This document shows positions 1,489 to 27,588 of a DNA stretch of 27,588 nt, piece after piece. Below the pieces are notes generated by a model. It made no database searches, was not told the origin of the DNA, and saw only the letters and a list, made by a program, of their open reading frames with translations. The translations under genes were made by a program, and so were the position numbers. The DNA is taken from the NCBI GenBank assembly GCA_004022145.1, contig RCNU01000040.1; one strand, given 5' to 3'. This stretch comes from Paecilomyces variotii (lineage: Eukaryota). Within the stretch, counting starts at the first letter, position 1, and each line of letters starts with the position of its first letter.

Positions 1489-1657
1489 CTTTAAATCCTT
1501 CCTCTCCCCTAAAGAAAACGCCCTTATCTTAAGTTTACCCTCCTTCTCTTCCTATTATAGCACTAATACTTATTTTATTATTATTCTTCTATTTCTTCTC
1601 CTTCTAAACTAACTCCTTATTTAGCATTAAACTTACTTTACTGCTAGCTTTCTATTT

Positions 1658-1691
1658 CCCTCCTTTTAAACTAACATTTTTAAAAGGAGGG
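1658..1691. repeat. Perfect 13-bp inverted repeat (hairpin) at the end of element A pol
   Basis: ccctccttttaaa (1658-1670), 8-nt loop, tttaaaaggaggg (1679-1691). Confidence 0.85.
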
Positions 1692-4600: not shown

Positions 4601-5140
4601 TCTAAGTAAAAACTGCTTTTTAGGTAAAAAACACCTCTGTTAATAATTCTTTCTCTTTTAGCTATAAATTATCACCTATAATAAGATTCTTCAGACAGTC
4701 TAGTATTAGTCTCATTCCTCTCTTAATATCTGATATCTTTAGCTAGATATATTTAGCAAATCCTCTATATATTTCTTTTATACTTCTTTGGAGGTTCTTA
4801 TAATAGCACTCCCTAATAACTTCTTTTTATTCCAATAACCCCCCTAGAGCTACTATAAGTCTATTCAATATATTTGCTAAATAAACCTTTTTATATTTCT
4901 TTTTATACTATATATTAACAGAATATTTCATTTTTATAATAAAAAGGTCACACCTTCTAGATAATCTATACCCCTATAATCTTCCAACTCCTTTATTTAA
5001 TTTAATAGGTTTAAATATTCCTACCCCTTTATTTTTAATTTCTTCGCTCGCTCTAAAGCTAATATTATTTACTAAATATAGCTCCCGCAGGCCTTCTCTA
5101 TTCCTAGTTTAATATTTATTATTCCTTTCCAACTCTAGTT
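1680..5140 (-). pseudogene. pol: Element A Pol (RT-RNase H-integrase), RIP-inactivated
   Basis: One frame: YQNLWFLVKKKSNKYWLIN (about 4370-4425); DLFSRYN*LEL (about 4230-4260); FLDN-ALI*GPKT (FLDD at 4059-4070); LPGIRRF; RNase H RYKSGV*...KLECR (about 3430-3510); HHCC remnant (about 2750-2865); VLPIELEMPT (about 2200-2225); SYKLKELD (about 1880-1905). Confidence 0.93.
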
Positions 5141-7357
5141 TAATAATTCTTATATTTAAGATAATAGATTACACAATACCTCTTCTCTTAATTTATTTTT
5201 TAGGTTATTTATTAAAAATACTTATACTACTGCCCAATTCTTTTAGTCTATAAAATAAATTATACTTTCCACTGTTCTATCAGATAAGGCTATATATCTT
5301 AGGCATACTTAATATTTGAACAGTTATCCTAGGACGCAGTTATAATTAATCCTATTATTCACTATAAAAAAAAAGACCTTATAATAGAAGGATCCTACCT
5401 GTATAGATACCTCTTTACAAAGACCTATAAAAGGAGTTTATCTGCCATCTATTAAAATTATATTACCCCTAAACTTCTAGCTTATAATAAGCTTATAGTA
5501 ATTTGCTACATCTCTATATATTATATTAATTTTGGCTCCGCTGTCCACTATAATATTTTATAGCTCTTTATACCTATTAATTTTAATAGGCAGTTTTAGA
5601 GTTATAGCCGCGTATAGTATCTTATTATTGTTAAGAGGCTTAAGTTATAATAATATATAAGTATACTAATCTGAACTATTTACTATATACTCTATATTAA
5701 ATACTAAAATATTAAACTATATAGCTTTAGAGTTATAGAATAACACTTTAATTGTTACTAGTTACAGTTAAAAGATAAATAAGGCTTTATAAAGCCCAGA
5801 AGACAATCCAATAAGATCCCTAATAAATATTTAAACCCCAGTATCTAGAATCTAGTTTATAATACCTATTATATCTATAATCCCCTTCAATTCATTTACT
5901 ACTTTAAACTTTCTTAGAGATAGTTTTTCTCTCATCTTAGTTATCTTCTTGCTTTTACCCAGTTCAGATACTTCTTTTATATCTTTATTTATTACTCTTA
6001 CTTGCTTAATTATATTTAATAGCTAATAATTGCCAAACTAATTTATTTTAACTAAGGGGAATCTTTACTCTTATTTAATTGCTCTTTATAATTTTTCCTT
6101 ATATTATTATTTAATCCTACTCTGTCTCTTTTTTATTCCTTAAGATTTCTCTAATCTTATTATATTAACTAAATAATAATCTTCTATAATATCTTTAGCT
6201 TCTTCTTTAGAGCTTAAGTTATTACCAGTCTATCCTAACATAATAGACTATATATTATATCTAATTAAACTAACTTATTTTTATTCCTCCTTTAATCTCT
6301 ATTTAATAATTACCTTTTATAATATATTTCCCTAGATAAGGCAGATAACTTCTCTATTCTGCCCTTCTAGTCTAAAATAAAGTTTATAATCTTCTTTCTA
6401 ATAAACAAGTTTCTAGTTTAAGAGGTTCTTTAAATCTAGATAATAAAGTCAAATATAATTAAAAGTCTAGCAGAAGTTATATAAGTTTAAAAAAATTCTA
6501 GATCCTCTAGCTAGTGCAAATCCCAAAGATACTCTAGCTTATATATTTATATCAGCATTAGGCATATTATTATTAGGCCTTCCCATATATTATATACTAT
6601 ATAGTTTCAACTTCTTAAACTCTTTTATTAACTAATTAATCTATAACTGCTCTATTAACTTTACTTTAATACTCTATTATTTAATCCTACTCTTATTCTT
6701 ATCTAGATAGGTTTTATTAGGTTTAATAAAAAATCACATATTATCTTCTTTAGTTACCTTCTCCTTTGCTAAAGCTACTATATCTTAATCTTTCTCTAAT
6801 TCTCTATTGTTAAGATAGTAAAGGGTTTTAATTATTCTTACCCTATCTATTATCTTCTTATAGAAATTAATATATTTAATAATAGACAGAGTATAGTAGT
6901 CTATATTTAACTCTTAAACCATTTACTGCTTAAGCTCCTCTAAAAGTCCTTAAAGATATTAAACTCTCTATAAATATCAGCTTAACTTATCTAAAGTTAT
7001 CAGCATTTCTAATACTATTTAATATTCTTAATTATATTCCTTTAGATCCTTAGAGCTATTATATTTCATATTTTTAAACCTTTCTAGCTATTAGATATTA
7101 TATTTCCTTTAATATTTATTATAATAGGCATACTCTTATTTAATTGCTTTTGCCAGTTTTGGGTAGTTCTTCTCTTTATATTCAGGTTAAGTACTTATCT
7201 ATAATAACACCAACAGGCTATAATAGTCTATAAACTATTCAGCTTTTTCTTCTTCTAAGAATTAATTCACCTTATATAACCTTTTAAAAAGCCTTAGATA
7301 ATAAATAATATTATCCCCTTTAAAATATAGTATCCCAGGATTTCTAGGTATCGGCAT
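5135..7357 (-). pseudogene. gag: Element A Gag-aspartic protease ORF, RIP-inactivated (may start further upstream, to about 7850)
   Basis: MPIPRNPGILYFKGDNI at 7357; CX2CX4HX4C remnant at about 6440-6481; VDSGAKINI with D at 5543-5545; CVLG*LF at about 5320-5340; ends TTA AAC TAG at 5135. All share one frame. Confidence 0.85.
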
Positions 7358-7882
7358 CTATAAAGCCAATATAACCTAGATTAGCTATACTTTTAATAAT
7401 CCTGCATTTTCAGATGCCTAAACTATTTATATCTCCAGACCTAGCAATATTAAGGAGCTAAAAGTCCTTCTATCTTAACTAATGCCAAAAAAATCAGTAT
7501 TTTTCTTTATATTTTTCTAAAAGAATAGTAATAAAGATAATAGTAAAAAGTTCTTCTATTTTTTAATAAATAATTCTTGTTTAATACTTTTCTATTCTTT
7601 CTAAATTTCTGCTTCTCTTTTATATCTGCTAAGCTCTTCCTTATATTTAGCAGTCCTTCCTTTCTCTCATTACTAATATATATTTTTATTTTATATTATA
7701 TTTGCTATCTCTGCTAATTTAAAAGATATATTTATCTCTTTTTATTTATAGTAGTAATCTTCTTTAGCTATTTTGCTTATCTTTTTACCGCTTCTTATCC
7801 CTTCCTTCAGCTTTAGCCTTAACCTTAGCTTTTAATTCTCCTTTCTCCCTTATTTCTATTTAATATTTTAACGCCCCCTATA

Positions 7883-7892
7883 TTTGGCTCCA
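7883..7892 (-). promoter_or_regulatory. Putative tRNA primer-binding site of element A
   Basis: Minus strand TGGAGCCAAA, 6 nt downstream of the LTR end, complementary to a tRNA 3' end ...UUUGGCUCCA. The cognate tRNA was not identified. Confidence 0.55.
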
Positions 7893-7898
7893 ATTTAT

Positions 7899-8222
7899 TA
7901 TAGGATAATATATTAAGACTTAATATAGAGTCTTTGAGCGAGTAGGTATTAAAAAGAAAAAGAAAGGTATTTAATTTTAGAGCTCAGAGTAGAGCTAGAG
8001 GAGAAGCTCTAGCTGCGAACTAATATAATAAACCAATAATAATCTAATGCTAAACTGATACTAAATAATAATAAAAAGATAAAGCTAATTATTTCTTTCT
8101 GAATAACTGAAAGGTCTTATGTTATTCCTCTCCTGCTTTTCTTATAGACTTTTAAAGACTTTAAGTAGAAGCACATAACCTCTTGACTAATTACATTCTT
8201 CACGCCGATTCTCCCTACTACA
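7899..8222 (-). repeat. 5' LTR of element A (about 324 bp)
   Basis: Minus strand begins TGTAG at 8222 and ends CTATA (RIP form of CTACA) at 7899. It adjoins the PBS-like site and GC drops abruptly after 8222. The partner LTR is not in the window. Confidence 0.65.
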
Positions 8223-8958
8223 CTATTATTTTTAACTCCTTAAAAAAAATAAAAAGTATTAAAAAATTTTATAAGTAAATAAATTAATATATTTATTTTA
8301 ACTAAAGTTAGAATAAGATTTAATTAAAATTTTAAATTAAGATATAGAGACTAATAAGATAAATAATATATTTTAAAAAAATAGTATAAATAATAATAAT
8401 AAAGGTAAGTTATTTTTTTTATTAATTATATTATTAAATAATTATAATAATATTATTATTATAAATATAGAAGTAAGGCTAAGTTTTTAATTTAAGTTTA
8501 AGTTTTTTAATTTAGCTCTAAATAAACTATCTTAATAATATTTACTTAATATATAAGAAATTAACTTAAGTTAAAAATAAAATAATTAAGTTTTTTTTAA
8601 ACTAATAATATAATCTCTATTTTTAAATTAAATTATTTAAGAGTAGTTTTTTTTCTAATAATAAGAATTTATATTATTTAAAAACTTTATCTTTAACTTA
8701 AGTTAGAATAGATTCTATTAATAGAATAAAAATTAATTCTTAAAGATTTAATTTAAATTAATATAACTATTACTTCTTATTTTTATTTTAAGATAATAAT
8801 TAAAAATAGAAAAATAAGATTATAAAGATAAAGACTATAAAATAAAAGAAAAAAATAATATATCTTAATAATTTAGGCTAGCTCTATAATAACTTAAGAT
8901 ATAAATATATTTAAGTAAGAATTTAACTTAAGTTAAAATACTATAGATATTATATTAT
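8223..8958. mobile_element. Heavily RIP-degraded segment, probably the upstream part of hAT element D split by insertion of B
   Basis: Same extreme AT content as 22987-25870, shares the TTAACTTAAGTTA(A/G) motif with it, and joins to it when B and one TSD copy are removed. No protein motif recognised. Confidence 0.45.
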
Positions 8959-9091
8959 TATTATAGATAATAACCCCTAAGTCTCGAGGGTTATATAACC
9001 TGCCGGTTATATAATACCCAGTATACTTAAATATCTTTAATCTTCAGATTTCTTCTAATCCTTAATAAGAAAACCTTTAATTATTATATTA
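8959..9091 (+). repeat. 5' LTR of element B
   Basis: Direct repeat of 22849-22981 with 18 transition-only differences. TA...TA ends are RIP forms of TG...CA. Confidence 0.9.
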
Positions 9092-9494
9092 TTATTTTCT
9101 TATTTTTTTTATTATTTTTTTATTATCTTATAATCTTAAAGGCTCTAGATTATTAAATAAACCTTTAGACTTATACTATAAACTGTAAAGAACCCTAATA
9201 AACTATAGCAAACTATAGCTTATTAAGATAAACTATAGATAATTATAACTCTAGATAACTATAATTTTAAAAAGCTATAGCTTTATAATTTATTAGAAGA
9301 CTATAATAAATTAAGATAAATTATAACTTATTATAATTATAGATAATAAGACCTTACTATAATAATTTATATATAATTATAAGATTAGGTAAAATAGCTA
9401 ATCTTTAACCTATAGATAATAGGGGGACTAGCCTTAGTATTAAGAATCTTATAATTTCTTTAAGCTAATAAGAGCTAATTAAAAACTACTAATA

Positions 9495-10812
9495 ATAGCA
9501 GAATTCTTTATAAAATAATAATTATAGGCAGTAATATAAAATATCTTTAATAATAGCAGAAATATAAGACTAAGATTATATAGAGAATTTAATAAATAAT
9601 ATAATAGTAAGAGTAATAGAATTATTTAGCCGCCTATAGAAGAGTTAGTAAAAATTATTAGCCTTAAGAGAGAATAATAATGCCTTATTATAGCAGTTAT
9701 ATATCCTTAATATTTAGCTATATATCTAGCAGCTATATATTTAGCAGCTATATATCTAGTAGCTATATATTTAGTAGCCTTATATCTAGCAGCTATATAT
9801 TTAGTAATTATATATTTAATAGTTATATATTTAGCAGTCTTAGTCTAAGTAAATAATAGCATTTTAAATATAAATATAAAAGCTTTAATAGTAACTAAAG
9901 GCCTTAATTTAATAAGAATAAGTATAAAATATAGTATAATCTAATAATAATAGTAATAGTTAAAATTTAGGACTTTTTATAATATTAATTAATAAAAAGC
10001 TTAAACTTTAATATCTAGAAGTATTTAATAGCTTAATAAAAGAACTTAAATATTAAATTATAGAATTTAATAAATAGCTAAAGAATAAGGCACTGCATAA
10101 TATTAAAGAGTAAGCTTTTTACCTTTATTTATATATAAAGAGTAAAATAAAGAAATAGCTAATAATATTAAAGATTAATAACCTAGAGAATCTAATATTC
10201 TAGAATTATACACTATTATACTATTAGCTATTAGACTATTATAGACTAGTAAATATTAAGATTATTACTACTTAGAGAATATTTAACCTCTAATAATATT
10301 TTAACTAACTGCTATAAGATTTTATTAATAAATTTAAAACTATTATAATAGATCTAGATTAAAATAATATAGCTTTAAGTAATATATTTAGCTATAAGCT
10401 TATACTATATATTATTTATAAGGTTTATTAAGAGTATTTTATATATCTTTTAGCTTTATATATAGAATAAAAGCATACTATTTAGCAGGCGGAGGTTTAT
10501 ATATAAAAAGGAAAATACTATATAGAATAATTATCTTAGGGCTATTATAATTACTTTAAGGCAATTAAAGCATTTAATATATAAAGCTAATTATTTAATA
10601 GAGAAATAATAATAGAGACTAAAGATTAAGAATAAGACTATAAATAATTACTCTAGATATCTTATAAAAATAAAAGATATAATTTACTAAATAAGGAGTA
10701 GAAGAGATAGTATAATAAGGGCCTTTATTTAAGATATAGAGAAAAAGGCTATTAAAAGAAGTAATATTTAAAGGCTTTTTAATTAGCAGAGAGTATAAGT
10801 ATAAAAAACTAA
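9495..10812 (+). pseudogene. gag: Element B Gag, RIP-inactivated (start approximate)
   Basis: CX2CX4HX4C remnant at 10726-10767 (YLRYREKGY*KK*Y). Ends A AAA AAC TAA (10803-10812), a -1 slippery heptamer. Confidence 0.75.
9719..9838 (+). repeat. 8 x 15-bp tandem repeat within element B gag
   Basis: Unit tatatat(c/t)tagcagc. In frame L-Y-I-*-Q, probably P-Y/H-V/I-Q-Q before RIP. Confidence 0.9.
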
Positions 10813-13800
10813 AAGGAGAACTAACTCTAAGGGCCTATTTCCCTTAAAATAGGCCTAAATAGAATATTAATATAGTTTTATTAAATAATCTAAATATTAT
10901 ATACATTTAAGTATTATTATCTTATATCTTAATATTTAGTAAAATTAAAGTATTAGTTTTAGTAATAGTATTATTAGCTATAGAGAGTATTATAATATTA
11001 ATAGTATTAATTAATAATAATATAAATGTAAATTATATTAATATAATAATAATAAGGTAAATTAAAGGAATTTATCTAACTTTAAGATTAATATTATTAC
11101 TAAGCATTTAAGATATTAATAATATATAACTAATAAAACTAATAAAGTATTATTTTAAACTATATTATATAATCTTAAATAAGAAAATAAAACTCTATAT
11201 ATTTAAAGTATTACTAATAATATTTAATATAATTCTTAGTTTACTATAGTTAATAGCTATAAATCTATTAATTAATTAGAAGAAAAGAAATATATTAGAG
11301 CGACTAGCTAAGCAGTAAAAGATTCTTAAAGTAAGATATATAATAGAAATTAAAGAGGAAATAAAGGATAATACTAAAGAAGGTTTTATATCTATATTTT
11401 ACTTAGGCTTATTTATAGCAGCAATAAACTTAAAGGATAAAGAAGACTTAGTTACTATTAAAATACTGCAGGAGTATATAGATTTAATGCGAGTATTTAG
11501 TAAAGAAGAGGTTAAATACCTATCTCTATAAAGACTAGATATTAATTATAAGATTAACCTTATTAAAGGAGCAATACTTTTATACAGACTATACTATTAT
11601 TTATTAGAATATAAATTAGAATTATTTAATAAGTTTTTAGATAAGGGTTTAGAATAGGGGTATATTTAGCCCTTTAATATATTATGCGCCTTACTATTAT
11701 TATTTATACTTAAATAACCTAGAGTTTTATAGCTTTATATAGACTTTAAGGCTATTAATAAAAGGATAATTAAGAATAGATACCTAGTTCCGATAATAAA
11801 TAACTTATTCTTAAGGCTATAAAATATAGTTATTTTTATCTATTTAAACCTCTGCTTAATATATTATCTAATCTGTATAGCGGAGGGATATAAGTAAAAA
11901 ATAGCCTTTTATATTAAATATAGTTTATTTAAGTAATAAGTAATACTATTTAGTCTCTGCAATACCCTAGTAATATTTCAGATATTTATAGATATAGTAC
12001 TTAAATAGCATATTAATAAATATTATATAGTTTATTTAAATAATATATTTATCTTTAGCTATAATAGGAAGCTTTATATTTAATATATAAGAATAATTCT
12101 TTAGAGCTTATTAGATAATAGTCTATTTTATAAATTAGAGAAATATAAATTCTCTATCTTTAGAGTTATATTCCTAGGATTTATAATTATGCCTTAAGAA
12201 GTAGTAATAAATAAACAGTAAATAGATATTATTACTGCCTAGCCTATTCTAATATTAATAGTAAGTTTAATCTAGTTCTTTAATTTCTATAATTTCTATT
12301 ATTAGTTTATTAAATATTATAGTTAAATTATTCTTCTATTAACCTAACTTATAAAATATAATATATTATTTATATAGGGAGAAGAAGCCTAGATAAGCTT
12401 CTAAGTATTTAAGAAGTATTTTATAGAGGCCCTATTATTAAGGCATTTTAATCTAAATAAACTATATATATTAAAAATAAATACTAGTAATTTTACTAGA
12501 TTAATAATATTAAGCTAAGTATTTAAAGATAGAGTATAATATCTTATTATATTTTATAGTATAAAGTTTATAAATATAGAGTTATACTGGCTAATATATA
12601 AGTAGGAATTATTTACTATTATTAATACTTTTAAAGTCTAGAGATATTTTTTAATTAAAATAGCTAAACTAGTTAAAGTAATTATAGACTATAATAATCT
12701 GAAATATTTCTTAATAATATAGATCTTATCTAGGAAATAAGCTAAATAAGTAAAATATCTTTTATAATTTTATTTTTATATTAGATATAGGCCCGGGAAG
12801 TATAACCTTACTAATAGCCTATTATATTAAAATAACTATAAATCCTAATAAATACTAGAGAATATATTAGCTTAACTTTTTTAAATTAAAGTAATATAAT
12901 ATATAGAGAGATATTATTACTCTAGAATATTATTATAAGATTTATCTTTAGATTAAGATTAAGGACTAAATATACTCTTATAGGATCGAATTAAACAAAG
13001 TTATATAGAGGAGATAAAGATAATAATATATATCTAGCTAGATATTTATTAGGATAAGAATAATAGTATTTTCTACTATAATTATATTAAAGTATATATT
13101 TTTATAAAAGAACTTTAACTACTTATTTTTTATAAATTTTATAATTTAAGAGTAAGAAGTTATTAGAGTAAGGAAACTATAATTAAGAGAATTAGAAGAT
13201 AAGTATTTTAGCCTAGTTTAGTATTTATAGTAGCGGACTATATTTAAAGTTATCTAGTATACTAGAGAGTAAAGCTAACGCAGATATATTATAAGATTCT
13301 AATAGTACTACTAATATTTAATAGATTATAGGATTATATAGTAATAGATTTTATTTTAAGACTTTCTAAGAGTATAAATAGTTTTAAGTTAAATTATTTT
13401 ATAATCTTAATATTTATTAATTAGTTTAGTAAAATAGGCTATTTTATAGTATATGCTGCAGAAACTAATATAAAAACCTTTATATAGCTTTATATTAAGA
13501 ATATATTTTATCTTTATAATATATAGAGATCTATTATCTTAGACAGAGACTTATTATTTATATTAAGTTTTTAAATAATATTAGCTAAGGCCCTTAATAT
13601 AAACTACTAACTATTTATAATATTTTATTCTTAAATAAATAGAGTAATAAAATATTTAAATTAAATACTAGAATAATATCTAAGAATATTTACTAATTAG
13701 TAATAAAATAACTAGGCTTACCTATTAGTAATTATAGAATATACTTATAATAACTTTTATTAGGCGGTAATAGAGATATCTCTATTCTTTATCTATTATA

Positions 13801-14440
13801 GCTAGTATTTAAAACTGCTAAATTTAATTAAAGTCCCTATTAATAGAGATACTAATATAATATAATTTATATAAGATATTTAGAAGCTATATAGAGAACT
13901 TATTAAATATCTTTTATTACTTTAAGATTAAATATTAAAAAAGTTTTTAAATAAACTAATAGATTTTAAAATTAATAATAAAGTCCTCCTTAATATTAAA
14001 TACTTATATATAAATAGACTTAGTAAGAAGCTTAATAATAAATATTAAGGTCTATTTAAGGTCTTAGCTAAAGTTAGCCCTTAAACCTATTGCTTAAAAT
14101 TACCTCTTTTATATTAAATATATTTAGTTTTCTATATATTCTTATTATCCCTATAAAAACAGAATAAATTATATATAGACCTAAAACCTAAACTGCTAGT
14201 TTAAGTCTTAGATAATATAAGATAGTATAATAAATAAGAAGTTAAAGAAATATTTAATATTAAGGGCCGCGATAAAATATTAAAATATCTTATTAAGTAA
14301 TATAATTATAGATATTAAGAGAATATATAGGAGCTATCTAGATATATTAAAAATATACTTAAAATAATATAATAATATTAGATATTAGTAAGAAAGCTAG
14401 CCTATATATTAAAGGCAGTGCGATATTTTTATACTAAGTA
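10806..14440 (+). pseudogene. pol: Element B Pol (PR-RT-RNase H-IN-chromodomain), RIP-inactivated
   Basis: Frame -1 to gag: LINNN (LIDSG) about 11007-11021; NIILSLL*L (DIILGLPWL) about 11225-11255; YIDFKAINKRIIKNRYLVP about 11735-11795; YLNN 12033-12044; LKINTSN (LETDASD) about 12471; IDYNNLKYF; YRPGK about 12786; HHCC remnant 13140-13265; SIILDRD about 13530; GLFKV about 14050; chromodomain EVKEIFNIKGRDKILKYLIK*YNY...NI*EL about 14238-14340. Confidence 0.95.
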
Positions 14441-15880
14441 CCTCTTTATACTAAATTTAATACTAAATAGTTAAAGATAAAGGCTAAATAATAGAACTTA
14501 CTATTTAGGGCTAAAGCTAAATAGAGAAATTTACTATTTAAAGCTATATATTATATATACTAGAACTTAGTAAACTAAGTAATTCTTCTACTATTTAAAG
14601 TAAGGCATTAAATAAGATAAGACTATATACTAGTAATATAAATATAGATAAGCTAATTAAGTTATTTTATTCTATCTCCTTAAGCTAATAAATAAGTTAA
14701 GTTAACTATTTAGATTTATATTAAGAAATTATTTATAAACTAATAAATAAGGTTTAAGAAATAATCTAGAGTAAATATTAATTATTCTTATTAGTTATTA
14801 GTAATAAAATAATATAAAAGTTAGAAGTCTTATATTAACTATAACTTAGAATAAACTATTATATTTAAATAATTAAGAATTTAACTCTTTAATATCTAAG
14901 CAACCTTTTAAATAATTAAAAATACTCTTAAATAATTAAATATCTAAAGCCTTTTTAGCTTTAAGCTTATATATTATTAAGATATATGCATTACTTAATA
15001 TAAATATTAAATATATATTAAATAAATTAATAATAAATATAGATAATATTATTAAATTAAAAGATAATAACTCTCTAGTAAAAGAGAGAATATTATTTAA
15101 TCTATTTCTTAAGTTCTCTTAAAAGATATAGAAGGCTGCTAAATATATAATTAAAAAATTACTAGATAATATTATAATCTTAAAGGAGTTATTAAAGAAA
15201 TATATATTATTTATAGCTTTTTATATATATGCTAATAAATAATAGGGTCTAAAATAAATTATTAAAGATACTATATAAAAAGAACTGCTATTACTTCTTA
15301 ATAGAGAGTAAATATCTTTTATATATTTAATATAATTATTACTATTAAAGAAATTAGAGTTTTATTATTAAGTAAAAGTAGAGTATATTTTAAAGAACTA
15401 TCTTATTAATATTAAATGCCTTAAAGTATAATAAAAGAGAAAGGACCTAGTAATTTAAAGAGATAACCTAATACCTCTTAAACTAAGAATATTAGTATAT
15501 AAGAAAATAAGTAATAATATTTACCTCTAAATTATAAAAGGAGCCCTTAAGCTCTATATATACTAATTTATAATAGATAGGGTCAGATCATTCTGCTAGT
15601 AAATATTATAAAGAAAGAGAATATTATTAATATTATAATTAAATTAGCGCTTATAAATAATAATAAGGAGCTATATTATATTATAATATATAATCTAGAA
15701 TAATAAGTTTTTATAGTTAAAACTAGACTATACCTAGAAATAAGAGAAGATAATCTTAGCTTAAATATAAGCAGATTGCTTTTTATAATTCTAGATATTA
15801 AAATATTAAATATATTAAACTTTATATAAGTAATTTTAAGAAAGCTAAATATTTAGCCTATAAATCTTAAACCTTATAAT
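14441..15880 (+). pseudogene. Extra coding-like region downstream of the chromodomain in element B, 5' part (unknown function)
   Basis: The pol frame stays protein-like, with 60 stop-free codons from 14940 and ...FNLFLKFS*KI*KAAKY...KELLLLLNRE. Probable 1-nt frameshift near 15590. Contains a 33-bp tandem duplication at 14480-14545. Confidence 0.55.
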
Positions 15881-16117
15881 TATTAAAGTATAGGCTTAAG
15901 AAGCAGGTTAGAATAAATAAAATAAGGTAATTAATACTAGGACTAGCTATAAGATCTTTATTTAACTAATTTAAACTAAAATAAGCTATTATAGGTAAGC
16001 TTAGTAAATAAAATATAGCTTAAAGAGCTTAAATTTAGATTAAGCTATATATTAAAGATATCTTTATAAGATTATATAACTCCTTATATAATTCTCTATA
16101 CTAGCACTATAATAATA
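15881..16117 (-). repeat. 3' LTR of element C
   Basis: Direct repeat of 21551-21787 with 26 transitions and no indels; directly preceded on the minus strand by the PPT. Confidence 0.95.
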
Positions 16118-16128
16118 CTCCCCTTCTT
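16118..16128 (-). promoter_or_regulatory. Polypurine tract of element C
   Basis: Minus strand AAGAAGGGGAG immediately before the 3' LTR. Confidence 0.85.
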
Positions 16129-19100
16129 AAGGTTAAGCTTTATTAAGACTATTTCTAGGCTTTAGCTTATTTAAATAGCGGTAATAAAAGTTTATAATAA
16201 TCTCCTAAGTATATTACAGATAATATATAAATTCTTTAATTAGGTTATTATAATCTAATTACTTAATAGTATACTATAGTTAAAGGCCTTTATACTTATA
16301 GCATTCTTATTAGGAGTTTAAGATATCTTTAATAACTTATTCTTTAAGGCTATTAACTTCTATAGGCAGTAATAAAGATTATTTTTATTTAGGCATAGGG
16401 TCTTTAATAATAGAGTAGAATAGGCTAATATTAAATATAGGATAAATATATATTAAGGTAGGTAAGTTAAGCTAGTAAATATATAAGCTAATAACTTTAA
16501 TAATATAAAATAGACTAAGATTCTTCTAATTAAATTTCTTCTAAAAGTATTAAGTATAAATATTCTAAGTATTTAATTAAATAGATTATTCTATATAATA
16601 GTAATAGGCTAGGGTTTAGTAATAATTAATCTACTCTTTATAATAGGCTTAAATAATATAAATCTAAATATAGATATAATCTATAATATTTTATATCTTC
16701 TTAATAAAGGCTTTAGCATCTCTAATAATAGGCTAGTTTATAGGCTAAATAGGCTTAAATCTTATATATAGATAGAACCTATAATTAGTAAAGAAAAGTA
16801 ATACTCTAATAATTTTAAAATAATAAGAGTTTAATATAAACTTAGCTAGAAATAGCTAATTAACTTAATTATCTTATAAATAATTAATATAAGTATATAG
16901 ATATTATTCTAAGATAATATTTATTCTCTTAGTTTAATTATTAATCTTAAGATAATAAATAGTAAATAATAGGTTTATAATATTTAAGCATTAAATTAAG
17001 TATTTCTAGAAAGCAGTAATAAACTAAGGGCCTTAATTAAATATTATAATCTTTAATAACCTATAAAACTTCTATATATAGCAGATATATAATTATATTA
17101 CTTCTTTAATATTATAAATAGCTTAGTAAGGAATAAAGTACCTTATTTTTATAAGTTAATCTATAATAACTAATATAGTATTATAACTTTAGCAAGGTAT
17201 AAGTCTAATAATAAAATCTATTAAGATATCTTACTAAAAGTATTTAGGGATAAAAAGCTAGTATAAGACTCTTTAGCAGCCTTTATTTAAGAGTATAATA
17301 TAATAGCAAGTATAGTAATTCTGGGTCTAATAATTTATATATTAATATATATTTAGCTAATAATACTCTTATAAGATTAAATTATAAAGCTTATATTTTT
17401 TAGGGTATTTAAATATATACTTATTATAGTATTCTTATAATAAGCGGGCTCTTAATTTATTATAATTAGAAATATATAGGCAGTCTCTATAGTATAAATA
17501 TCTTTTTCTTTATTAATAATTAACTAGTATAATCTTAAAATAATAGTTAGCTTTATAATCTAAGGCTTATAAAATAGACTATATTAAATTATTAGATAAA
17601 TAAGCTATATCTAATAGATCTTTAATACTAGATAAATATTTTAGTTTATTAAGTATAGTAAGAGAACTTAACTAATCTTATTTAATAAGCTAAGCTACTT
17701 TTTTAATAAGCTAAATAATCTCTTTAGTAAACTAGATTATCTTATTAACAGATTAAATAATCTTAATAAACTAATTAAGCAGTAGGATAGATTAGATAAA
17801 TTCTTTAAGCTAAATAAATTAATTTCTTAGAGTAAATTAGGTAAATATTTCTATAGATTTAGTAAAATTTTTAATTTCTTAAGCTATTAGATTAGTAAAG
17901 TAGATATACTTTACTATTTAACTCTTAATAATAGCTTTTAGTTTTAGGGATCTTTAAATCTATAGATTAAGGTTCTTTTTTTTTAAAACTATCTAGCTCT
18001 AATATTATAACTATTTATCTCTTTTTTTAGAAAAATCCTCTAATCTCCTAATTAAGATATTAGACTTTACTTCTTACTTTCTAAGTTAATATATAATTTA
18101 AAAGTTAAACTAAGATAAGAACTTAGACTAATAAGCCTATTGCTAGTTTAATAGCTTAGTTAATATAAAGTATTTTAAATTATAATAATCTATAATAATT
18201 TTAATTAGTAATAGTATATCTTTAAGCTTAAGATATTACTTTTTAAAGTAATAAATAATTACTAGCAGTTCTTTATTATAAATCTTATAATTATACTTTA
18301 TAATAAAGAGCTTTTTTAAGAAAAATATAATAAAATACAGGATTCCTTTATTATTATATTAAGATATAACTCTAGCTAATATATAGTTAGATAAATTAGT
18401 TTTAACTATAACCTCGCAGGTTTAATTAAATAGCTTTAAGATTAGGGCTTAAATAAATATTTCTTTTAAGGCTTTAAAACTAGACTAATAGATAAGTATT
18501 TAATTAAAGGGAATTCCCTTCTAGGTTAAATTTATAAGCAGTATAATTATCTTAAAAAAGTTATAAATAAATTAATAGTAAAAGTTGCTAAACTTAATAA
18601 AGGCTTATATATTAATTATATAAGTTAGGGTCCTCTATTTAGCAATTATTTTTATCTTATTTAAATCTATTTTAATATAGTCTTAGCTAATAATAATATT
18701 TAAGAACTTAGTCTTAGAGATAATAAACTTATACTTCTAAATCTTTATATATAGGCTTACTTTATATAGCTTTTATAGAATAGTGCAGATATATTAAATA
18801 TATTTAGAATAAGTTATATTATATATTAAGATATTATTAAGATATGCAGTATAAAAGATATTAAGGTAATCTTATAGAGTATTATTAATAAACTATTAAA
18901 ATATTACTAGTACTTTTATTAAGCTAAATAATATTACTAGTAATTTAAATAAGCTAAATTAAGTATAGAAGGTAGTTAGATATTCTTATCCTTTCTTAAT
19001 ATAAAGATTATTAAATATAGAAATAATATTAATCTTTATAAAGTACTTTATTTTTTTTAAGTTATTTAGGGTCTCTTTAATTAAAGATAGAGAATATTAG

Positions 19101-20150
19101 TCTTTAATAATTATTACATTTAGAGCTTAGTAATCTATGCAGATTTATATCTCTTTATTAGGCTTTTTAATAAATAGAATTAAAGATATAGTAGGTAATA
19201 AGCTTAAGCAGATAAATTCCTTTCTTAGATTTTTTTTAATTTATTCTTTTAAGACCTTTAATTTATCTTAAGATATAGTATATAAGAGTTTAAAAGGGAG
19301 TAACTTCTTCTCTAATAATTTAATATTATAATTATAAGAATAATATAATAGTAAGTATTTAGCCTTCTTAAAAGAAAAGATATTAGTATAATTTTTAAAC
19401 TCTTTAAGCAGCAAGCGGGTAAAGTCTTTTTTTTAAACTTATTTAATCCTTAGAGTAGTATCTAAGTCCTCTAAGATAATTATAAATATTTAAATATTTT
19501 TTTAGGCATAGGTAGAATAAGCGGCTAAAGAAATAAAGGCTATATTTCTCTCTTTTAGTCTTTTAAGTCTTAAGAGTAAATATTAGGGTAAAGCCTTTAG
19601 AAGAATATTATATAGAATAAGTATTTTAATTAATTTTAAGAGTATATTATAATTTTTTTAATAATAATTATTATTAAAAATAATATTATAAATAGTAAAT
19701 TATAAATGCGGGTTATAATACTTTAATTAGAAGAGTCTTAAAATAATAGAATAGTATATTAATTAGATAATATAAAACTTAATATCTTTTTTAAAGTAAT
19801 CCTTAATTCTTATATTTATCTAGATATAATATATAATCTTCCTATCTTCTAATTCTCTTTTATTAAATATATATAGGATAATTAGGCTTTTTAGGGAGAT
19901 AGGCTTTAACTTCTAGTCTTTAGCTTATTCTTAGTCTATAAATTCTTATTTTTTAGCTCTAATATTAAGCAAGGCATAAATTAATAAATAAATCTTTTTC
20001 TTCTTCTTCTCTAATATTATAAATAGTATTATTAATTTTAATTATTATAGATATTTTTTAAGGTTAATTTTATAAATAATAGCAGCGGAGATTTAGATAA
20101 TATATAGTTTTTAAGCCTAGCTATAATTTACTCTAGGCTTATTCCTTTTA
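16127..20150 (-). pseudogene. pol: Element C Pol (PR-RT-RNase H-IN-chromodomain), RIP-inactivated with a few small indels
   Basis: YALLNIRA (LDTGA) about 19955-19978; ICIDY*ALN about 19115-19145; AYLNNILIY with YLDD at 18833-18844; KTNLSNY (ETDSSDY) about 18390; NYKIYNKELL about 18265-18295; HHCC about 17300-17430; chromodomain E*VIKDILNS**E...L*YTIK*LDY...IINFYYRYLNKLKP about 16160-16345, resembling the MAGGY chromodomain as I recall it (DS.WE.RGRGG.RL.Y.V.W...NFH.RYP.KPGP). Confidence 0.93.
17665..17780. repeat. Degenerate about 21-bp tandem repeat in the RNase H-integrase linker of element C
   Basis: Units aagctaagctacttttttaat / aagctaaataatctctttagt / aaactagattatcttattaac. Confidence 0.55.
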
Positions 20151-21516
20151 TTAAAGACTAGCTAGGGGATAGATTATATAAGTTTAAAAACTAAATTACT
20201 TAAGGAGTTTAAAGGCGGGGTTTATATATAGTTATAATCTAGATCTTCTAATAATTATCTAAGTATAAGTAATCTCTAATATAATATTCTAGGGAGCTAT
20301 ATTAGAAATAGGTGCTAGTTTTATAGTATAATAAGCTATATTCTCTCTTGCTTAGGCATTTAGAAGTGCTTAAATCTATTAGATTATATAGTTATACTAA
20401 GGCTAGTTTACTTTTTTATATAAAACTTTTCTAAGGCTAACTATTATATCTTACAGCTAGAGTAAGACTTAGAATAAGTAAAGGGGACTAAATATACTAA
20501 ATAAATCTTAAAATAATAGTATAGGTTTTTATAGTAAAAGGCTAGTTTATAATATATTAATAATAGTAGTTCTTAAAATCTTATAAGAACTTAGTAAATT
20601 AATAATATTTATAACTTAAGGGCTAGCTATATAATAGTATTTCTTAGAGTTTTTAGCTAATAACTTGCTTTAGTAAAATAGATAATATTTCTTTAGATAT
20701 TTTTCTTTCTAATATTAAGCGCTAGAATTTAATAAAAAAGATTTTAAATTCCTTATTAATTTAATAGAGATTAAATAGTTTATTATATATATTGTTTATA
20801 TAATTAAAGTTATTAAATATATATTCTAAGATATCTAAAATCTTTTAGTAATTACTAAGAATATAGGTTCTATCTCTAATATATAGTAATATTTAAGTAT
20901 AAGATACATCTTTTAAGCAATTAATTATATAAGCTATATAGCTCTAAAGAGTTAGAAATCTATTTTAATTAATTATTATCTTCCTTTAAATCTAAGTTAT
21001 AAAGCGCTAAAGGTCCTTTTAGTTACCTTTAAATTTATTTAAATTAAGGAGTCTTTTTAAAAGTCTAGGGGCGAAGGAAGATATAATAGTAAATATTTTA
21101 GATATTTTTATTAAAGCAGCTATAGGCCTTTTAATATTAGGCTTAAGTTTAAATATAAATAAAGATATATTTATAGTAAGTATAACTATATAATAGGCTT
21201 AGTCTCTTTTAAGAATAGTCTAAATATACTACTATTCTTTTTCCTAGAACTAGATTTTTTAATATTATTAAATAGCCTTAAGTTTAATAATTTCTTATTT
21301 AAATCTTTATTAAATAATAGTAAATTTTTGCTAAAGCTTTTAAAAGTATATTTTAGCTTAATAACTTATCTTATTTACAGCAGTTTTAGCTTTACTAATA
21401 TATTTATATATTAGGCGATAATACTTATATTATTCTAGCCTATAGCTAGTAGTAATATATTTAATAAACTTATCTAGGGCAGTTAGTAAGAATAAGAGAA
21501 TTAAGGTAAATATTAT
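20128..21516 (-). pseudogene. gag: Element C Gag, RIP-inactivated
   Basis: N-terminus IIFTLILLFLLTALDKFIKY...E*YKYYR; IDLS (MDLS) about 20370; zinc-knuckle remnant TYF*YSSLE...RDYLY about 20265-20315 with a 2-nt deletion relative to copy F. Confidence 0.8.
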
Positions 21517-21550
21517 TAATAATATTAACTTTTAAGTAAAAGCTATATAG

Positions 21551-21787
21551 TATTAAGATATAGGCTTAGAGAGCAGATTAAAATAAATAGAATAAGATAA
21601 TTAATACTAGGACTAGCTATAAGATCTCTATCTAGCTAATTTAAACTAGAATAAGCTATTATAAGTAGGCTTAATAAATAAAATATAGCTTAAGAAGCTT
21701 AAATTTAGATTAAGCTATACGCTAAAGATATCTTTGCGAGATTATATAACTCCTTATATAATCCTCTATGCTAGCACTATAATAATA
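21551..21787 (-). repeat. 5' LTR of element C
   Basis: Direct repeat of 15881-16117, upstream of gag on the minus strand. Confidence 0.95.
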
Positions 21788-21792
21788 ATAAT

Positions 21793-22440
21793 TTATATAA
21801 TAAACTAGATAATATAATAATTATAATTAATCTAGAGTATAATCTATATAATAAGTATAATTAAGATTATTTTAAAGCCTATAATAATTATAAATAGGAC
21901 TATTTTAATAAGTATAGTTTTAAAGCCTATAATAACTATAAATAGAATTATTTTAATAAGTATAGTTCTAAAACCTAAGACTTAAGCTAAACTACTCTTT
22001 AAGGGTTAGAAGTCTAATTAAAAAGCAGTAAATAAATAAGTAAAGAATAGATAAATAGTAATATAATTATATTATAAGTTATTAGTTAGAGATTAAGAAT
22101 TTAACTAAGGAGTAAAGAATAAATTAGTAAAGAATAAATAAATAGTATTATAACTATAATATAACTTATTAATCCTTTATTAAAGCTTTTAGCAATTATA
22201 TAACTTAAGATTAAAAAAAATTTAGTTAAAATAAAAGTAAGATTAGCTAAAATAATTAATCTTATATTAAATAATAATACTAATAATTATAAGATTAAAA
22301 GATATTATATAATGCTTAATTTAATAATTACTATTAGTAAGCCTTAGTATAAAGTAATTAAATTAAAGGGTATTAATTATAATAATACTTACTATATTTT
22401 ACAAAATATATTATATTAATATTATATACTATTTTCTTTT
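21793..22440 (+). pseudogene. Extra coding-like region of element B, 3' part (continues across the element C insertion; end approximate)
   Basis: Removing C plus one TSD joins ...PINLKPYN|LYNKLDNII... in frame. Includes an in-frame 48-bp repeat. Confidence 0.5.
21870..21976 (+). repeat. 48-bp tandem repeat (2 copies plus a partial)
   Basis: ttttaaagcctataataa(t/c)tataaatag(gac/aat)tattttaataagtatag at 21870 and 21918; 16 codons per unit. Confidence 0.9.
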
Positions 22441-22465
22441 TAAGTATATTAATAATAATAATTTT

Positions 22466-22588
22466 TTATTTATTTTTTAAGGTTTAATAGACTTTATTTT
22501 AAGCTTACTAATTTTACTAAGGTTATTAATTATATTCTTTCTTATTTATTTTTAGGGTTTAATAGACCTTATTATAATCTTACTAATT
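22466..22588. repeat. About 47-bp direct repeat in the 3' untranslated region of element B
   Basis: ttattt...ggtttaatagac(t/c)ttatt...cttactaatt at about 22466-22513 and 22542-22588. Confidence 0.75.
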
Positions 22589-22833
22589 AGTTTATTTTCT
22601 TAACTAATTAATTATATTTTTATAAAGTTAGCCTTTCTTATTATTATTTATTTCTGCTTACTTTAATTATAATAATCTATAAGATATTATAATATAGTAT
22701 AATATTTCTTTATTTTTAATACTTTGCAATAAGCTATAATAGGCTATAATATTTAACAGCGAACTATAATATTTAGTAATATATTATAGTTTTAGCTTTA
22801 ACTTCTAAGACTTTATATAGACTTAAGTCCTTT

Positions 22834-22844
22834 AAGAGAGGAGG
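22834..22844 (+). promoter_or_regulatory. Polypurine tract of element B
   Basis: AAGAGAGGAGG, 4 nt before the 3' LTR. Confidence 0.85.
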
Positions 22845-22848
22845 TAAA

Positions 22849-22981
22849 TATTATAAATAATAACCCCCAGATCTTAAGAGTTATATAACCTACCAGTTAT
22901 ATAATACTTAATATACTTAAATATCTCTAATCTTTAGATCTCTTCTAATCCTTAATAAGAAAACCTTTAATTATCGCATTA
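22849..22981 (+). repeat. 3' LTR of element B
   Basis: Direct repeat of 8959-9091, follows the PPT. Confidence 0.9.
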
Positions 22982-23599
22982 ATTATTGCTAATATTATTA
23001 TTTTTAAATTTCTTCTCCTTTTTACTTTACTTTAATATAGATATATTAAAATTATTAAATCCTTTATTATAATTTTAAAATTATATTATTTATATTCTTA
23101 TAAAAATCTATAAGACTTCTTTATCTTTAAATATTAATATTTAAGATATAAATTTTAATTATAATTCTATTAAATAATATAAGCCTTAATCTAAAGCTAA
23201 TACTCTTAACTTAACTAAACTTAAGATAATAAGATATAATTAAAGAAAGGCTATTATCTATTTAACTCTTTTAAAATAAATTTAAATTTTTAAATTTTAA
23301 TAAAATAAAATAAAGTTTATAAAATAGTAGTCTAAGTTTTAATAAATAAAAATAAAGACTTAATTATATATATAATAATACTATTAAAAAGTTATAGATA
23401 GTATTTTTAATATCTTTTATATATAATATTTATATACTCTATATTTTTTTAATATTTTTATAAAGAAAAAAATAATACTAGCTTAATAATTATCTATATA
23501 AAAAGGGCTATATACTAATTTAAAGATAAGACTTAAAAAAATAATAATATTTAAAATATATTAATTATAAAGATAAGAACTAAGTAATTAATATAAACT

Positions 23600-25700: not shown

Positions 25701-25989
25701 AAAAGAAAATAATTAGATAAATTACCTATATCTAAAATTTCTATATATCTTTAGAGAAATATAGTAATTATAGATAGATTTAAGTTTTTTAATTATTACT
25801 TATACTAGATTAATTATATTAAAGATTAATATAAATATTAAGAATTTAACTTAAGTTAGACTTTAATATTATATTCTAATATTATTTTACTAATTTTTAA
25901 TTAATATTTAGTAATAAATATTATAAAGAAATAAAAATCTAAATAGTTCTTAAAGATTAATAAGATTTATATAAAAATTTAGATTAATT

Positions 25990-26199
25990 TAAAGTAATTA
26001 AAAAAAAACTAAAAAACCGAATTAAACTAAAAAACTTAAAAAAACTAAACTTAAAAAAACTATATAATATACTATAAACTATTAGTTTAGTTTATAAAGT
26101 CTATAAACTATTTTAGTTTATAAAATTATAAACTAAACTAAACTATAAGTAGTTTAGTTTAGTTTAATTCGGTTTTTTTAATTTTCTATAATTACTTTA
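25990..26199. mobile_element. Element E: 210-bp MITE-like element with about 42-bp imperfect terminal inverted repeats
   Basis: Left taaagtaatta-10 nt-aaaaaaccgaattaaactaaa mirrors right tttagtttaattcggtttttt-10 nt-taattacttta. Interior is rich in aaacta/tagttt (probably RIP forms of AAACCG/AAACCA). Confidence 0.8.
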
Positions 26200-27588
26200 A
26201 ACTAGCTAAAGAATAAATTATATAAATCTAGGAATTAAATTACTTAAAGAGTCTAGAGGTAAGATTTATATATAGCTATAATTTAAATCTTTTAATAATT
26301 ATTTAAGTGCGAGTAATCTTTAATATAATATTTTAAGAAGCTATATTAAAAATAAGCGCTAGTTTTATAATATAATAAGCTATACTCTCTTTTACTTAAG
26401 TATTTAAAAATATTTAAATTTATTAAATTATATAGCTATACTAAGACTAGTTTACTTTTATATATAAGGCTTCTTTAAAGCTAATTATTATATCTTATAG
26501 TTAAAGTAAAGCTTAAAGTAAATAAAAAAAACTAAGTATACTAAATAAATTTTAAAATAATAGTATAAGTCTTTATAATAAGAGGCTAGTTTATAATATA
26601 TTAATAATAGTAATTCTTAAAATCTTATAGAAACTTAATAAATTAATAATATTTATAATTTAAAGATTAGCTATATAATAATATTTCTTAGAGTTTTTAA
26701 TTAATAGCTTACTTAAGCAGAGTAAATAATATTTTTTTAAGTATTTTTTCTTCTAGTACTAGGCGCTAAAATTTAATAAAAAAGATTTTAAATTTTTTAT
26801 TAATTTAATAGAGGTTAAATAGTTTATTATATATATTATTTATATAATTAGAATTACTAAATATATACTTTAAAATATCTAGAATCTCTTAGTAATTACT
26901 AAGAGTATAAATCCTATTTTTAATATATAGTAATATTTAAATATAAGGCGTATTTTTTAAATAATTAATTATATAAGCTATATAGCTTTAAGAGGTTAAA
27001 AATTAGTCTTAATTAATTATTATCTTCCTTTAAATTTAAGCTATAAAGCGCTAAAGGTTCTTTTAATAAATTTTAAATTTATTTAAGTTAAGAAGTTTTT
27101 TTAAAAGTTTAAAGGCAGAGAAAGATATAGTAATAAGTATTTTAAATATTTCTATTAAAATAGCTATAGGCCTTTTAATATTAAGCTTAGATTTAAATAT
27201 AAATATAAATATATTTATAGTAGAAATAGCTATATAATAAGCTTAATTCTTTTTAAAAATAGCCTAAATATATTACTATTCTTTTTTATTAAGCTATACC
27301 TTTTAATATTACTAAATAGCCTTAAGATTAATATTTTTTTATTTAAATCTTTATTATATAGCTATAAACTCTTACTAGAGTTTTTAAAACCTTATCTTAA
27401 TTTATTTAATATATTAGCTAGCTTTATTTATAGATAACTTAGCCTTAATAATATATTTATATATTAGGCAATAATAATTATATTATTTTAGCCTATAGTT
27501 AATAATAATATATTTAATAAATTCCCCTAGAATAATTAGTAGAAATAGAAGAATTAAGGTAAATATTATTAATAGTATTAACTCTTAA
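26200..27588 (-). mobile_element. gag: Element F: truncated second copy (gag region) of the element C family; 5' LTR expected just past the right edge
   Basis: Collinear with about 20156-21535, mostly transitions, with transversions and indels around 27285-27450. Confidence 0.92.

Follow-up and report, generated by a model that had tools for sequence, protein, structure and literature searches.

LTR retrotransposons are known to carry extra open reading frames (ORFs), the functions of which are an open question (PMC7264820). In fungi, the Boty-like Gypsy elements of Botrytis cinerea and Sclerotinia possess an additional gene, brtn, which in the available portions of its descriptions runs antisense between pol and the 3′ LTR and has no assigned function (Zhao et al., 2011; PMC7264820; PMC8365987). 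An "add. ORF" is similarly described, in the part of the account available, for fungal chromoviruses (Novikova et al., 2010; PMC2864245). In plants, the env-like aORF-3S of Athila and Bagy2 lies in the same interval in sense orientation in all copies of a family, and some of these ORFs have membrane segments and spliced RNAs (PMC7264820). A more distant analogy is VANC of the Arabidopsis VANDAL DNA transposons, an element-encoded protein that, in the portion of the report available, joins a conserved domain to a repeat-rich variable region, is accompanied by non-coding repeat motifs that vary from one subfamily to another, and has demonstrated binding and anti-silencing activity (PMC5735166).

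The window analysed here, a 27,588-nucleotide stretch of Paecilomyces variotii DNA (assembly GCA_004022145.1, contig RCNU01000040.1), contains a chromodomain Ty3/Gypsy retrotransposon (chromovirus), element B, with a third gene, ORF3, after pol. ORF3 shares with brtn its location, its unassigned function and its fungal Gypsy setting, whereas it lies in sense orientation, a comparison made by description. It may be identical to the "add. ORF," likewise an additional ORF of a fungal chromodomain Gypsy element and likewise compared by description only; one supplement text of PMC2864245 contains no match to ORF3, and a literature search whose scope stopped short of unseen supplements and of Figure 3 of that paper returned no paper on the ORF3 protein. 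The position, orientation and presence in all family copies recall aORF-3S, unlike some of which ORF3 has no membrane segment, and its host is a fungus. The likeness to VANC is one of layout and of neighboring motifs: no sequence similarity was found between the two, and for ORF3 both binding and anti-silencing are putative only.

Organization of element B

Element B has the features of a chromovirus, with an LTR pair and a polypurine tract (PPT) around gag-pol. Its 5′ LTR (8958–9107, ends approximate) is a direct repeat of 22849–22998, with 125 identical positions, 18 transitions and 6 transversions; the 3′ LTR spans 22849–23005 (end approximate) and is directly preceded by a purine run, the PPT, at 22834–22844. 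These features, like pol and ORF3, are on the plus strand. The pol gene (10803–14474, start approximate; PR-RT-RH-IN-chromodomain) is riddled with stops of the kind produced by repeat-induced point mutation (RIP), and in the window Pfam detects only RT_RNaseH and SH3_Tf2-1, the chromodomain escaping detection. The window aligns to a less mutated copy of the clade, C8, whose domains run RVT_1, RT_RNaseH, Integrase_H2C2, SH3_Tf2-1 and Chromo (PF00385, E 1e-10). Alignment of the C8 Pol end to 13716–14468 (43%) places the chromodomain at approximately 14235–14380. A TAA at 14472–14474, the likely Pol stop, occupies the same column in the window, C14, C36 and C56; in C8, the least mutated copy, a TGA one codon before that column ends Pol, which answers the call in a preliminary description of this locus to look for a stop after the chromodomain.

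That description had noted some 2.5 kb between chromodomain and PPT once a nested element, C, is set aside, and 2,524 nt indeed separate 14400 from the PPT of B when C and one target-site copy are removed. The interval begins with a non-coding spacer (14475–14939) that holds three copies of an interrupted-palindrome motif, at 14483, 14516 and 14574. ORF3 follows at 14940–15880 and 21790–22419. Its first part (14940–15571) starts somewhere in 14940–15030, residue 1 of the intact natural relative P0007 aligning to 15027, and a profile of natural relatives matches 15051–15572 (E 2e-28). The protein-like character claimed for 14940–15590 in the Pol frame is borne out, with 14 stops in the 211 codons of 14940–15572 versus 31 and 28 in the other frames. 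A one-base frameshift near 15570, private to the window copy and absent from C14 and C36, leads into the second part (15572–15880), which the profile matches in another frame (15566–15850, E 6e-17). The reading was said to cross C in frame: the frame entered at 15572 does resume at 21790, while this crossing part lies outside the Pol frame.

Element C (15881–21784, minus strand) is a Gypsy element with an LTR pair at 15881–16104 and 21551–21784, minus-strand RT_RNaseH matches and a 5-bp target-site duplication, ATAAT, at 15876–15880 and 21785–21789; its insertion site is empty in C14 and C36. As the preliminary description had it, the Pol frame of C reads directly into C's own PPT. Beyond C, the ORF3 tail (21790–22419) comprises low-complexity repeats (a 48-bp array and an 87-bp pair) and a conserved C-terminal block. 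A Paecilomyces-only profile reaches just E 4.1 on this tail, and the P. lecythidis tail P0016 matches approximately 22267–22410 (E 1e-6). The interval closes with a second non-coding spacer (22420–22833), on the 3′ side, which contains a 75-bp tandem pair; in the equivalent region of C56, C8 and C33, gap lengths modulo 3 are distributed 0/6/6.

ORF3 as a third gene of the element

Element B is one of a small clade of chromodomain Ty3/Gypsy retrotransposons of fungi, and in every member a separate third gene, on the sense strand, lies between pol and the PPT. ORF3 is present in nine of nine clade copies, all of them with Pol 3′ ends that match at E 3e-41 or lower, the next match beyond the clade falling to E 5e-20. 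All copies in the genome are inactivated by RIP-type mutation, the window copy additionally by its frameshift and by C. An unrelated insertion, the outcome that would have undone the original proposal, is not what the siblings show: the whole segment is present in the two uninterrupted copies C14 and C36, which are 85–89% identical.

ORF3 is a genuine gene of the element that has been under selection, and it encodes a soluble protein of approximately 470–530 amino acids. Its coding conservation resembles that of pol, with both codon-position bias and in-frame gaps: transversion columns in the conserved core are distributed 88/59/154 over the three codon positions (p 5.5e-11), compared to 53/21/118 in the Pol control and a flat distribution in the spacers, and gap lengths modulo 3 in the core are 14/3/1. 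Codon bias is absent from the tail taken by itself (p 0.23 for 7/13/15 in three copies). C6, near which no pol was found, and C39, which has a spacer insertion, were excluded from the frame count and trees; the core codon test nevertheless included C6, and the Pol control included C39. In C8, ORF3 opens with ATG codons, and a TGA ends it in both C8 and C56. Intact relatives of 465–534 amino acids are annotated as P. variotii hypothetical proteins, and three of these (P0007–P0009), known as protein records without their genomic context, as is the distant relative P0022, are 47–69% identical to the C56 read-through over 93–97% of its length. Of 202 stop codons in the copies, 172 align with a Q, W or R residue of P0007, the pattern predicted for RIP. 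The natural proteins include the records KAJ9394195.1, KAJ9351126.1, KAJ9257821.1 and KAI9816002.1. Scans of metagenome and viral contigs returned no ORF3 relative.

The spacer between pol and ORF3 differs from both genes. It has no codon bias, ranges in length between about 480 and 710 nt among copies, and contains stops in 22 of 156 codons, twice the density of Pol (90/1223) or ORF3 (36/523; Fisher p 0.007 and 0.008). The extra sequence after the chromodomain, first put at about 2 kb of coding, includes genuine coding sequence of about 1.57 kb (523 codons), flanked by non-coding spacers of about 470 and 410 nt. Internal repeats in multiples of three had been read as a sign of coding. This fits the 48-bp array of the ORF3 tail; the 33-bp repeat, which lies in the spacer and in other copies is spaced at 32, 35, 58 or 74 nt, is rejected as coding evidence. 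An antisense gene is likewise rejected: stop-poor minus frames have no profile match, and all matches of the ORF3 profile are in plus-strand frames.

Candidate routes of ORF3 expression would be a promoter of its own in the spacer or a spliced RNA. Four sequencing runs were compared with the C8 copy: two runs presumed to be RNA gave no contigs, one gave five contigs with none over the ORF3 core, and one, of unrecorded type, gave a 2.2-kb contig spanning the spacer, ORF3 and PPT.

ORF3 modules have been exchanged between subfamilies. The Pol and ORF3-core trees reject one another (AU p 7e-10 and 3e-47), and the window group is separated from C56 by a distance of 0.03 in Pol and 0.17 in the ORF3 core.

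The ORF3 protein and its possible roles

The protein consists of a conserved core of approximately 270 residues with a strongly basic middle (residues 100–190, 22–23 K+R versus 5–6 D+E) and an acidic, repeat-rich tail. The tail contains two IIDLT/VIDLT SUMO-interacting-type motifs (SIMs) and four ψ-K-x-E SUMOylation-type sites, all of which are kept in the diverged P. lecythidis tail; by sequence and model, the conserved SIM consensus lies within an acidic, unstructured region. Among 20,000 shuffles, two such SIMs arose in 3–7 and four ψ-K-x-E sites in 0–1, the patterns having been picked after the sequences were viewed. In the window's own subfamily there is a single alignable SIM-like position, its letters altered by RIP, and P0022, from the lichen fungus Pycnora, has the core with neither SIM nor ψ-K-x-E, which means that not all relatives share the tail. 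The SIMb of PIAS has VIDLT as its core (available text of PMC3901395), and ORF3 matches PIAS-type SIMb in this exact core, accompanied by IIDLT or FIDLT, and in its acidic surroundings (available text of PMC3901395 and PMC9071424). Unlike PIAS, ORF3 is a transposon protein with no recognizable ligase domain, its SUMO binding being predicted from the motif.

Searches for known families and folds returned little. Pfam matched none of the 12 window frames of the segment and none of five read-throughs, and the natural proteins had a best E of 0.02 or worse; NCBIfam gave a single match at E 0.23, and PHROGs and a PDB sequence search gave none. Rfam has no match in the C8 segment. The ESM Atlas held nothing usable for P0007 or P0022. 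With the first AlphaFold model, of poor pLDDT, Foldseek found no PDB match at E 0.001 or better, and viral fold searches were uninformative (one match at TM 0.07, with VIA peaking at Z 5.3 on a segment of three helices). Because both models are poor (pLDDT 45.5 and 37.7), nucleic-acid binding by the basic core is proposed from charge alone, and we favor it by a narrow measure. A SUMO gene is present in the host; complex prediction of the tail with only the first exon of host SUMO, the alignment unused, gave a score of 0.09 and a mark of 0.34. From its motifs, the tail is likely to be both a binder of SUMO and a target of SUMOylation.

SUMO has been linked to transposon silencing in systems other than P. 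variotii. The SUMO-type motifs of the intact relatives hint at a means of handling chromatin control by the host, and on balance we lean toward ORF3 as a nuclear accessory protein that would engage SUMO and act on the chromatin or transcription of its own element, offsetting host silencing. A plausible target of the basic core would be the palindromic motif of the spacer, of which 7 of the 10 scanned regions contain two to three copies, against means of 0.1–0.8 after shuffling. The next most likely role would be to steer the integration complex, together with the chromodomain, to SUMO-rich chromatin. A bolder version, tentative and rather unlikely, casts ORF3 as a counter-defence protein that would bind its own palindromic motif and divert or engage SUMO-dependent silencing, with subfamilies swapping modules as in an arms race, a counterpart of VANC.

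ORF3 might instead serve elsewhere in the element's cycle, in RNA export or packaging, as a particle chaperone or in nuclear import, with the SUMO-type motifs governing only localization or turnover. Such a role, which we regard as possible though doubtful, draws on the same gene-level evidence, on the ability of the spacer motif to form small hairpins, and on the comparison of plant additional ORFs to retroviral accessory factors (PMC7264820). The spacer, however, folds no more stably than shuffled sequence (z 0.0 to 0.3), and the retention of two SIM-type and four acceptor-type sites in different species suggests a role beyond mere localization.

It is improbable that ORF3 was captured from the host and is only a passenger that does nothing for the element. 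Un-RIPped ORF3 fragments do occur in GC-normal DNA, and a distant relative exists in Pycnora. The un-RIPped matches, however, are fragments of at most approximately 120 residues, no full-length host copy is found among 21 matches, and the presence of ORF3 throughout the clade, under selection comparable to that on Pol across subfamilies, speaks against a passenger.

A C-terminal extension of Pol, produced as one polyprotein or by readthrough, had been offered beside a separate accessory ORF; the evidence of spacer, frame and stop codons sustains the latter, and we consider the extension highly improbable. ORF3 shares the Pol frame in four of eight copies (the window, C14 and C36, which are near-identical siblings, and C33), whereas C56, C8, C23 and C78 have it in another. 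The one-in-three coincidence that the preliminary description had allowed for is the best reading of the in-frame start in the window copy. The frame argument is weakened because dead copies can shift frame after insertion, as illustrated by C33 and C56, which differ in frame despite their close relationship. The TGA after the C8 chromodomain and the variable, stop-dense spacer, non-coding by three tests, also oppose an extension, as does the stand-alone annotation of the natural relatives, found by word-index searches that are unable to return fused forms; an unrestricted profile search gave 14 proteins of 49–302 amino acids, one per cluster.

An env-like protein for cell-to-cell spread is scarcely credible: the position, rightly identified earlier as that of env, and the sense orientation would fit (PMC7264820), whereas the protein has no hydrophobic membrane segment (top 19-residue hydropathy 0.8–1.0 in all four natural proteins) and no Pfam or viral-fold match, and its motifs are nuclear in type.

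Significance

ORF3 offers a handle that most extra ORFs lack, with intact natural proteins, discrete conserved SUMO-type motifs that could each be altered separately, and a candidate target motif. The available text of PMC6300479 describes transformation, crosses and active RIP in P. variotii. Should ORF3 prove not to counter silencing, it would constitute an unannotated protein family, catalogued until now as host hypotheticals. If it does, it would reveal a means by which a retrotransposon survives the genome defence of a fungus; and if the counter-defence proposal is true, plant VANC would have its equivalent in a fungal retrotransposon, one whose host has working genetics and active RIP.

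Element B and its neighbours

The window is AT-rich (GC 10–29%) and holds LTR retrotransposons nested one in another, and its dinucleotides bear the mark of repeat-induced point mutation (RIP). Element B, an LTR retrotransposon on the plus strand (~8958 to 23005), is a chromovirus judging from a less mutated relative on contig C8 of the host genome, which encodes RT, RNase H, integrase, SH3, and chromodomain in that order, and whose Pol end aligns with window 13716–14468. Its gag region contains a 15-bp tandem array of ~8 copies (9716–9837), and a similar five-residue repeat appears on translation at the same place in the C56 copy. Element C (15881–21784, minus strand) is nested in B, with a 5-bp duplication (ATAAT) and an empty site in two other copies. 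With C removed, the chromodomain-to-polypurine tract (PPT) gap, preliminarily described as ~2.5 kb, measures 2,524 nt, and the Pol of C does run into its own PPT as described. Further C copies lie in or beside two B-clade copies, on C78 (L041:6760–9901) and C23 (L042:1–898), which together with the nested copy indicate that C struck the B clade more than once. Elsewhere, a 47-nt inverted repeat (25985–26204; 87%, arms 126 nt apart) is followed by a second partial element C (26192–27588, ~80% identical to 20148–21535), and element A, a minus-strand Gypsy-type element with a weak RT_RNaseH match (E 3e-4), occupies 1–8100.

A gene downstream of pol

ORF3 is a gene of its own on the sense strand, present throughout the clade and under selection; its SUMO-type motifs are conserved and its modules exchangeable. 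Among 64 genomic matches to the Pol 3′ end, nine score E 3e-41 or better (the next, 5e-20), and all nine of these clade loci have an ORF3 match downstream; the segment is present in other B copies. The ORF3 profile has no match in element A (1–8100), and no pol match was found within the 10 kb surrounding a tenth ORF3 copy, on C6. The C56 copy, translated with X at stops, matched three intact proteins of 479, 534, and 465 aa (47–69% identity over 93–97% of the query), named by NCBI as Paecilomyces variotii hypothetical proteins. Their profile in turn matches window 15051–15572 (E 2e-28) and 15566–15850 (E 6e-17), both on the plus strand, and has no minus-strand match. Among the aligned copies, 172 of 202 stops stand opposite Q, W, or R, although Q and W together make up 4.8% of the core. 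Transversions are not produced by RIP; across nine copies, those in the core fall 88/59/154 over codon positions 1/2/3 (p 5.5e-11), compared with 53/21/118 in Pol, and 14 of 18 core gap lengths are divisible by three. In the tail alone, codon bias is not significant (p 0.23) and all five gaps are in frame.

The segment had been described as ~2 kb of extra coding sequence, possibly a C-terminal extension of Pol. The coding part amounts to only ~523 codons. The frame at 14940–15572 is protein-like and coincides with that of Pol in the window copy, as it does in C14, C36, and C33 (window, C14, and C36 being near-identical); ORF3 is out of the Pol frame in C56, C8, C23, and C78, in a comparison of mutated copies only, where dead copies may acquire frameshifts. 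The pol–ORF3 spacer, ~480–710 nt long, lacks codon bias, is barely alignable across subfamilies, and in the window contains 22 stops in 156 codons versus 90 in 1,223 for Pol. In C8, Pol terminates at TGA and ORF3 opens with ATG and closes with TGA; because RIP destroys TpG rather than creating it, these stops are probably original. An extension of Pol is not supported, and on these sequence features ORF3 is very probably a gene separate from Pol. For P. variotii, PMC6300479 gives a CpA to TpA bias of RIP. The reading is continuous across C as previously noted, but its frame differs from that of 14940–15572, because a single-base shift, absent in C14 and C36, intervenes near 15570 in the window copy.

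Spacer palindromes, module exchange, and stray fragments

The spacer carries an interrupted palindrome (AGCAG, 4–6 nt, CTGCT where best preserved), a motif chosen by eye, with two or three copies in seven of ten regions, one in two, and none in one, at spacings that vary by subfamily. A stricter pattern has 60 genome-wide matches versus 11 for the reversed control, about one-third of the 60 in B-clade spacers. The C78 spacer (L041) has tandem repeats ~74 nt apart with a palindrome in each, and the C39 spacer a ~6.7-kb insertion (L044:1000–7700; internal ~147-bp tandem array at 4365–5185), unrelated to elements A and C by blastn. Near-identical palindrome-like sites with a TATATAAA core (G000:C18:44833, C76:3408, C5:822785, C28:26068, C23:1233763) probably belong to another repeat family.

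On purine/pyrimidine distances, the window group (window, C14, C36) lies 0.03 from C56 in Pol, but the distance grows to 0.17 for the ORF3 core and 0.34 for the tail; the partner of C23 is C8 in Pol (0.09) and C56 in the core (0.09), and C8 and C56 are 0.21 apart in the core but 0.04 at the tail end. The Pol tree is rejected by the core data, and vice versa (eight copies; unrooted, with no direction of transfer claimed). By these comparisons, ORF3 modules have moved between subfamilies, an exchange that template switching of co-packaged RNAs would explain without any selection.

Six short stray ORF3 fragments, of normal GC (46–56%) and with few RIP marks, lie outside recognisable elements (G000:C1:2095269–2095631, C3:262056–262406, C86:537704–537916, C45:875080–875202, C78:943264–943377, C1:2142718–2142906; L052, L054, L058, L063–L065). 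ORFs adjoining two of them are blank in Pfam and have motifs reminiscent of PD-(D/E)XK nuclease-like fungal proteins; gene callers joined one fragment to such an ORF (predicted protein P0010).

The ORF3 protein and its possible role

Searches matched the ORF3 protein to no known family or solved structure and gave no usable hit by fold; the protein has no membrane segment. An unrestricted profile search returned 14 proteins, comprising fragments (Paecilomyces and unnamed), a tail from P. lecythidis, and a Pycnora praestabilis protein of 302 aa that has the core (hhalign 96%, 188 columns) without SUMO-interacting motif (SIM)-type or psi-K-x-E motifs. Residues 100–190 are strongly basic; the tail is acidic, with a low-confidence structure prediction, and bears the SIM-type motifs IIDLT and VIDLT (VIDLT and FIDLT in P. 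lecythidis) and, in each species, four sites of the SUMOylation consensus psi-K-x-E, a combination that seldom arises in shuffled sequences. SUMO has a role in heterochromatin and transposon silencing, and the host genome has a SUMO gene. The SUMO-interacting motif of PIAS has VIDLT as its core (PMC3901395; PMC9071424).

ORF3 may be pictured as an accessory protein of the nucleus: its basic core is predicted to bind nucleic acid, and its tail, from its motifs, would engage SUMO. The most likely targets of such a protein would be the chromatin or transcription of the element itself. We lean slightly toward such a SUMO-engaging nuclear role; counter-silencing specifically is less probable. The combination of a conserved domain, a repeat-rich variable region, and subfamily-specific noncoding repeats brings VANC proteins to mind (PMC5735166), by analogy rather than homology.

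Family-wide additional ORFs located after pol and ahead of the 3′ LTR are already known, in plants (PMC7264820) and, antisense, in Botrytis as brtn (PMC7264820; PMC8365987); an "add. ORF" is drawn in fungal chromoviruses (PMC2864245). What sets ORF3 apart from these is that it lies on the sense strand, has no membrane segment, belongs to no known family, and bears SIM-type motifs.
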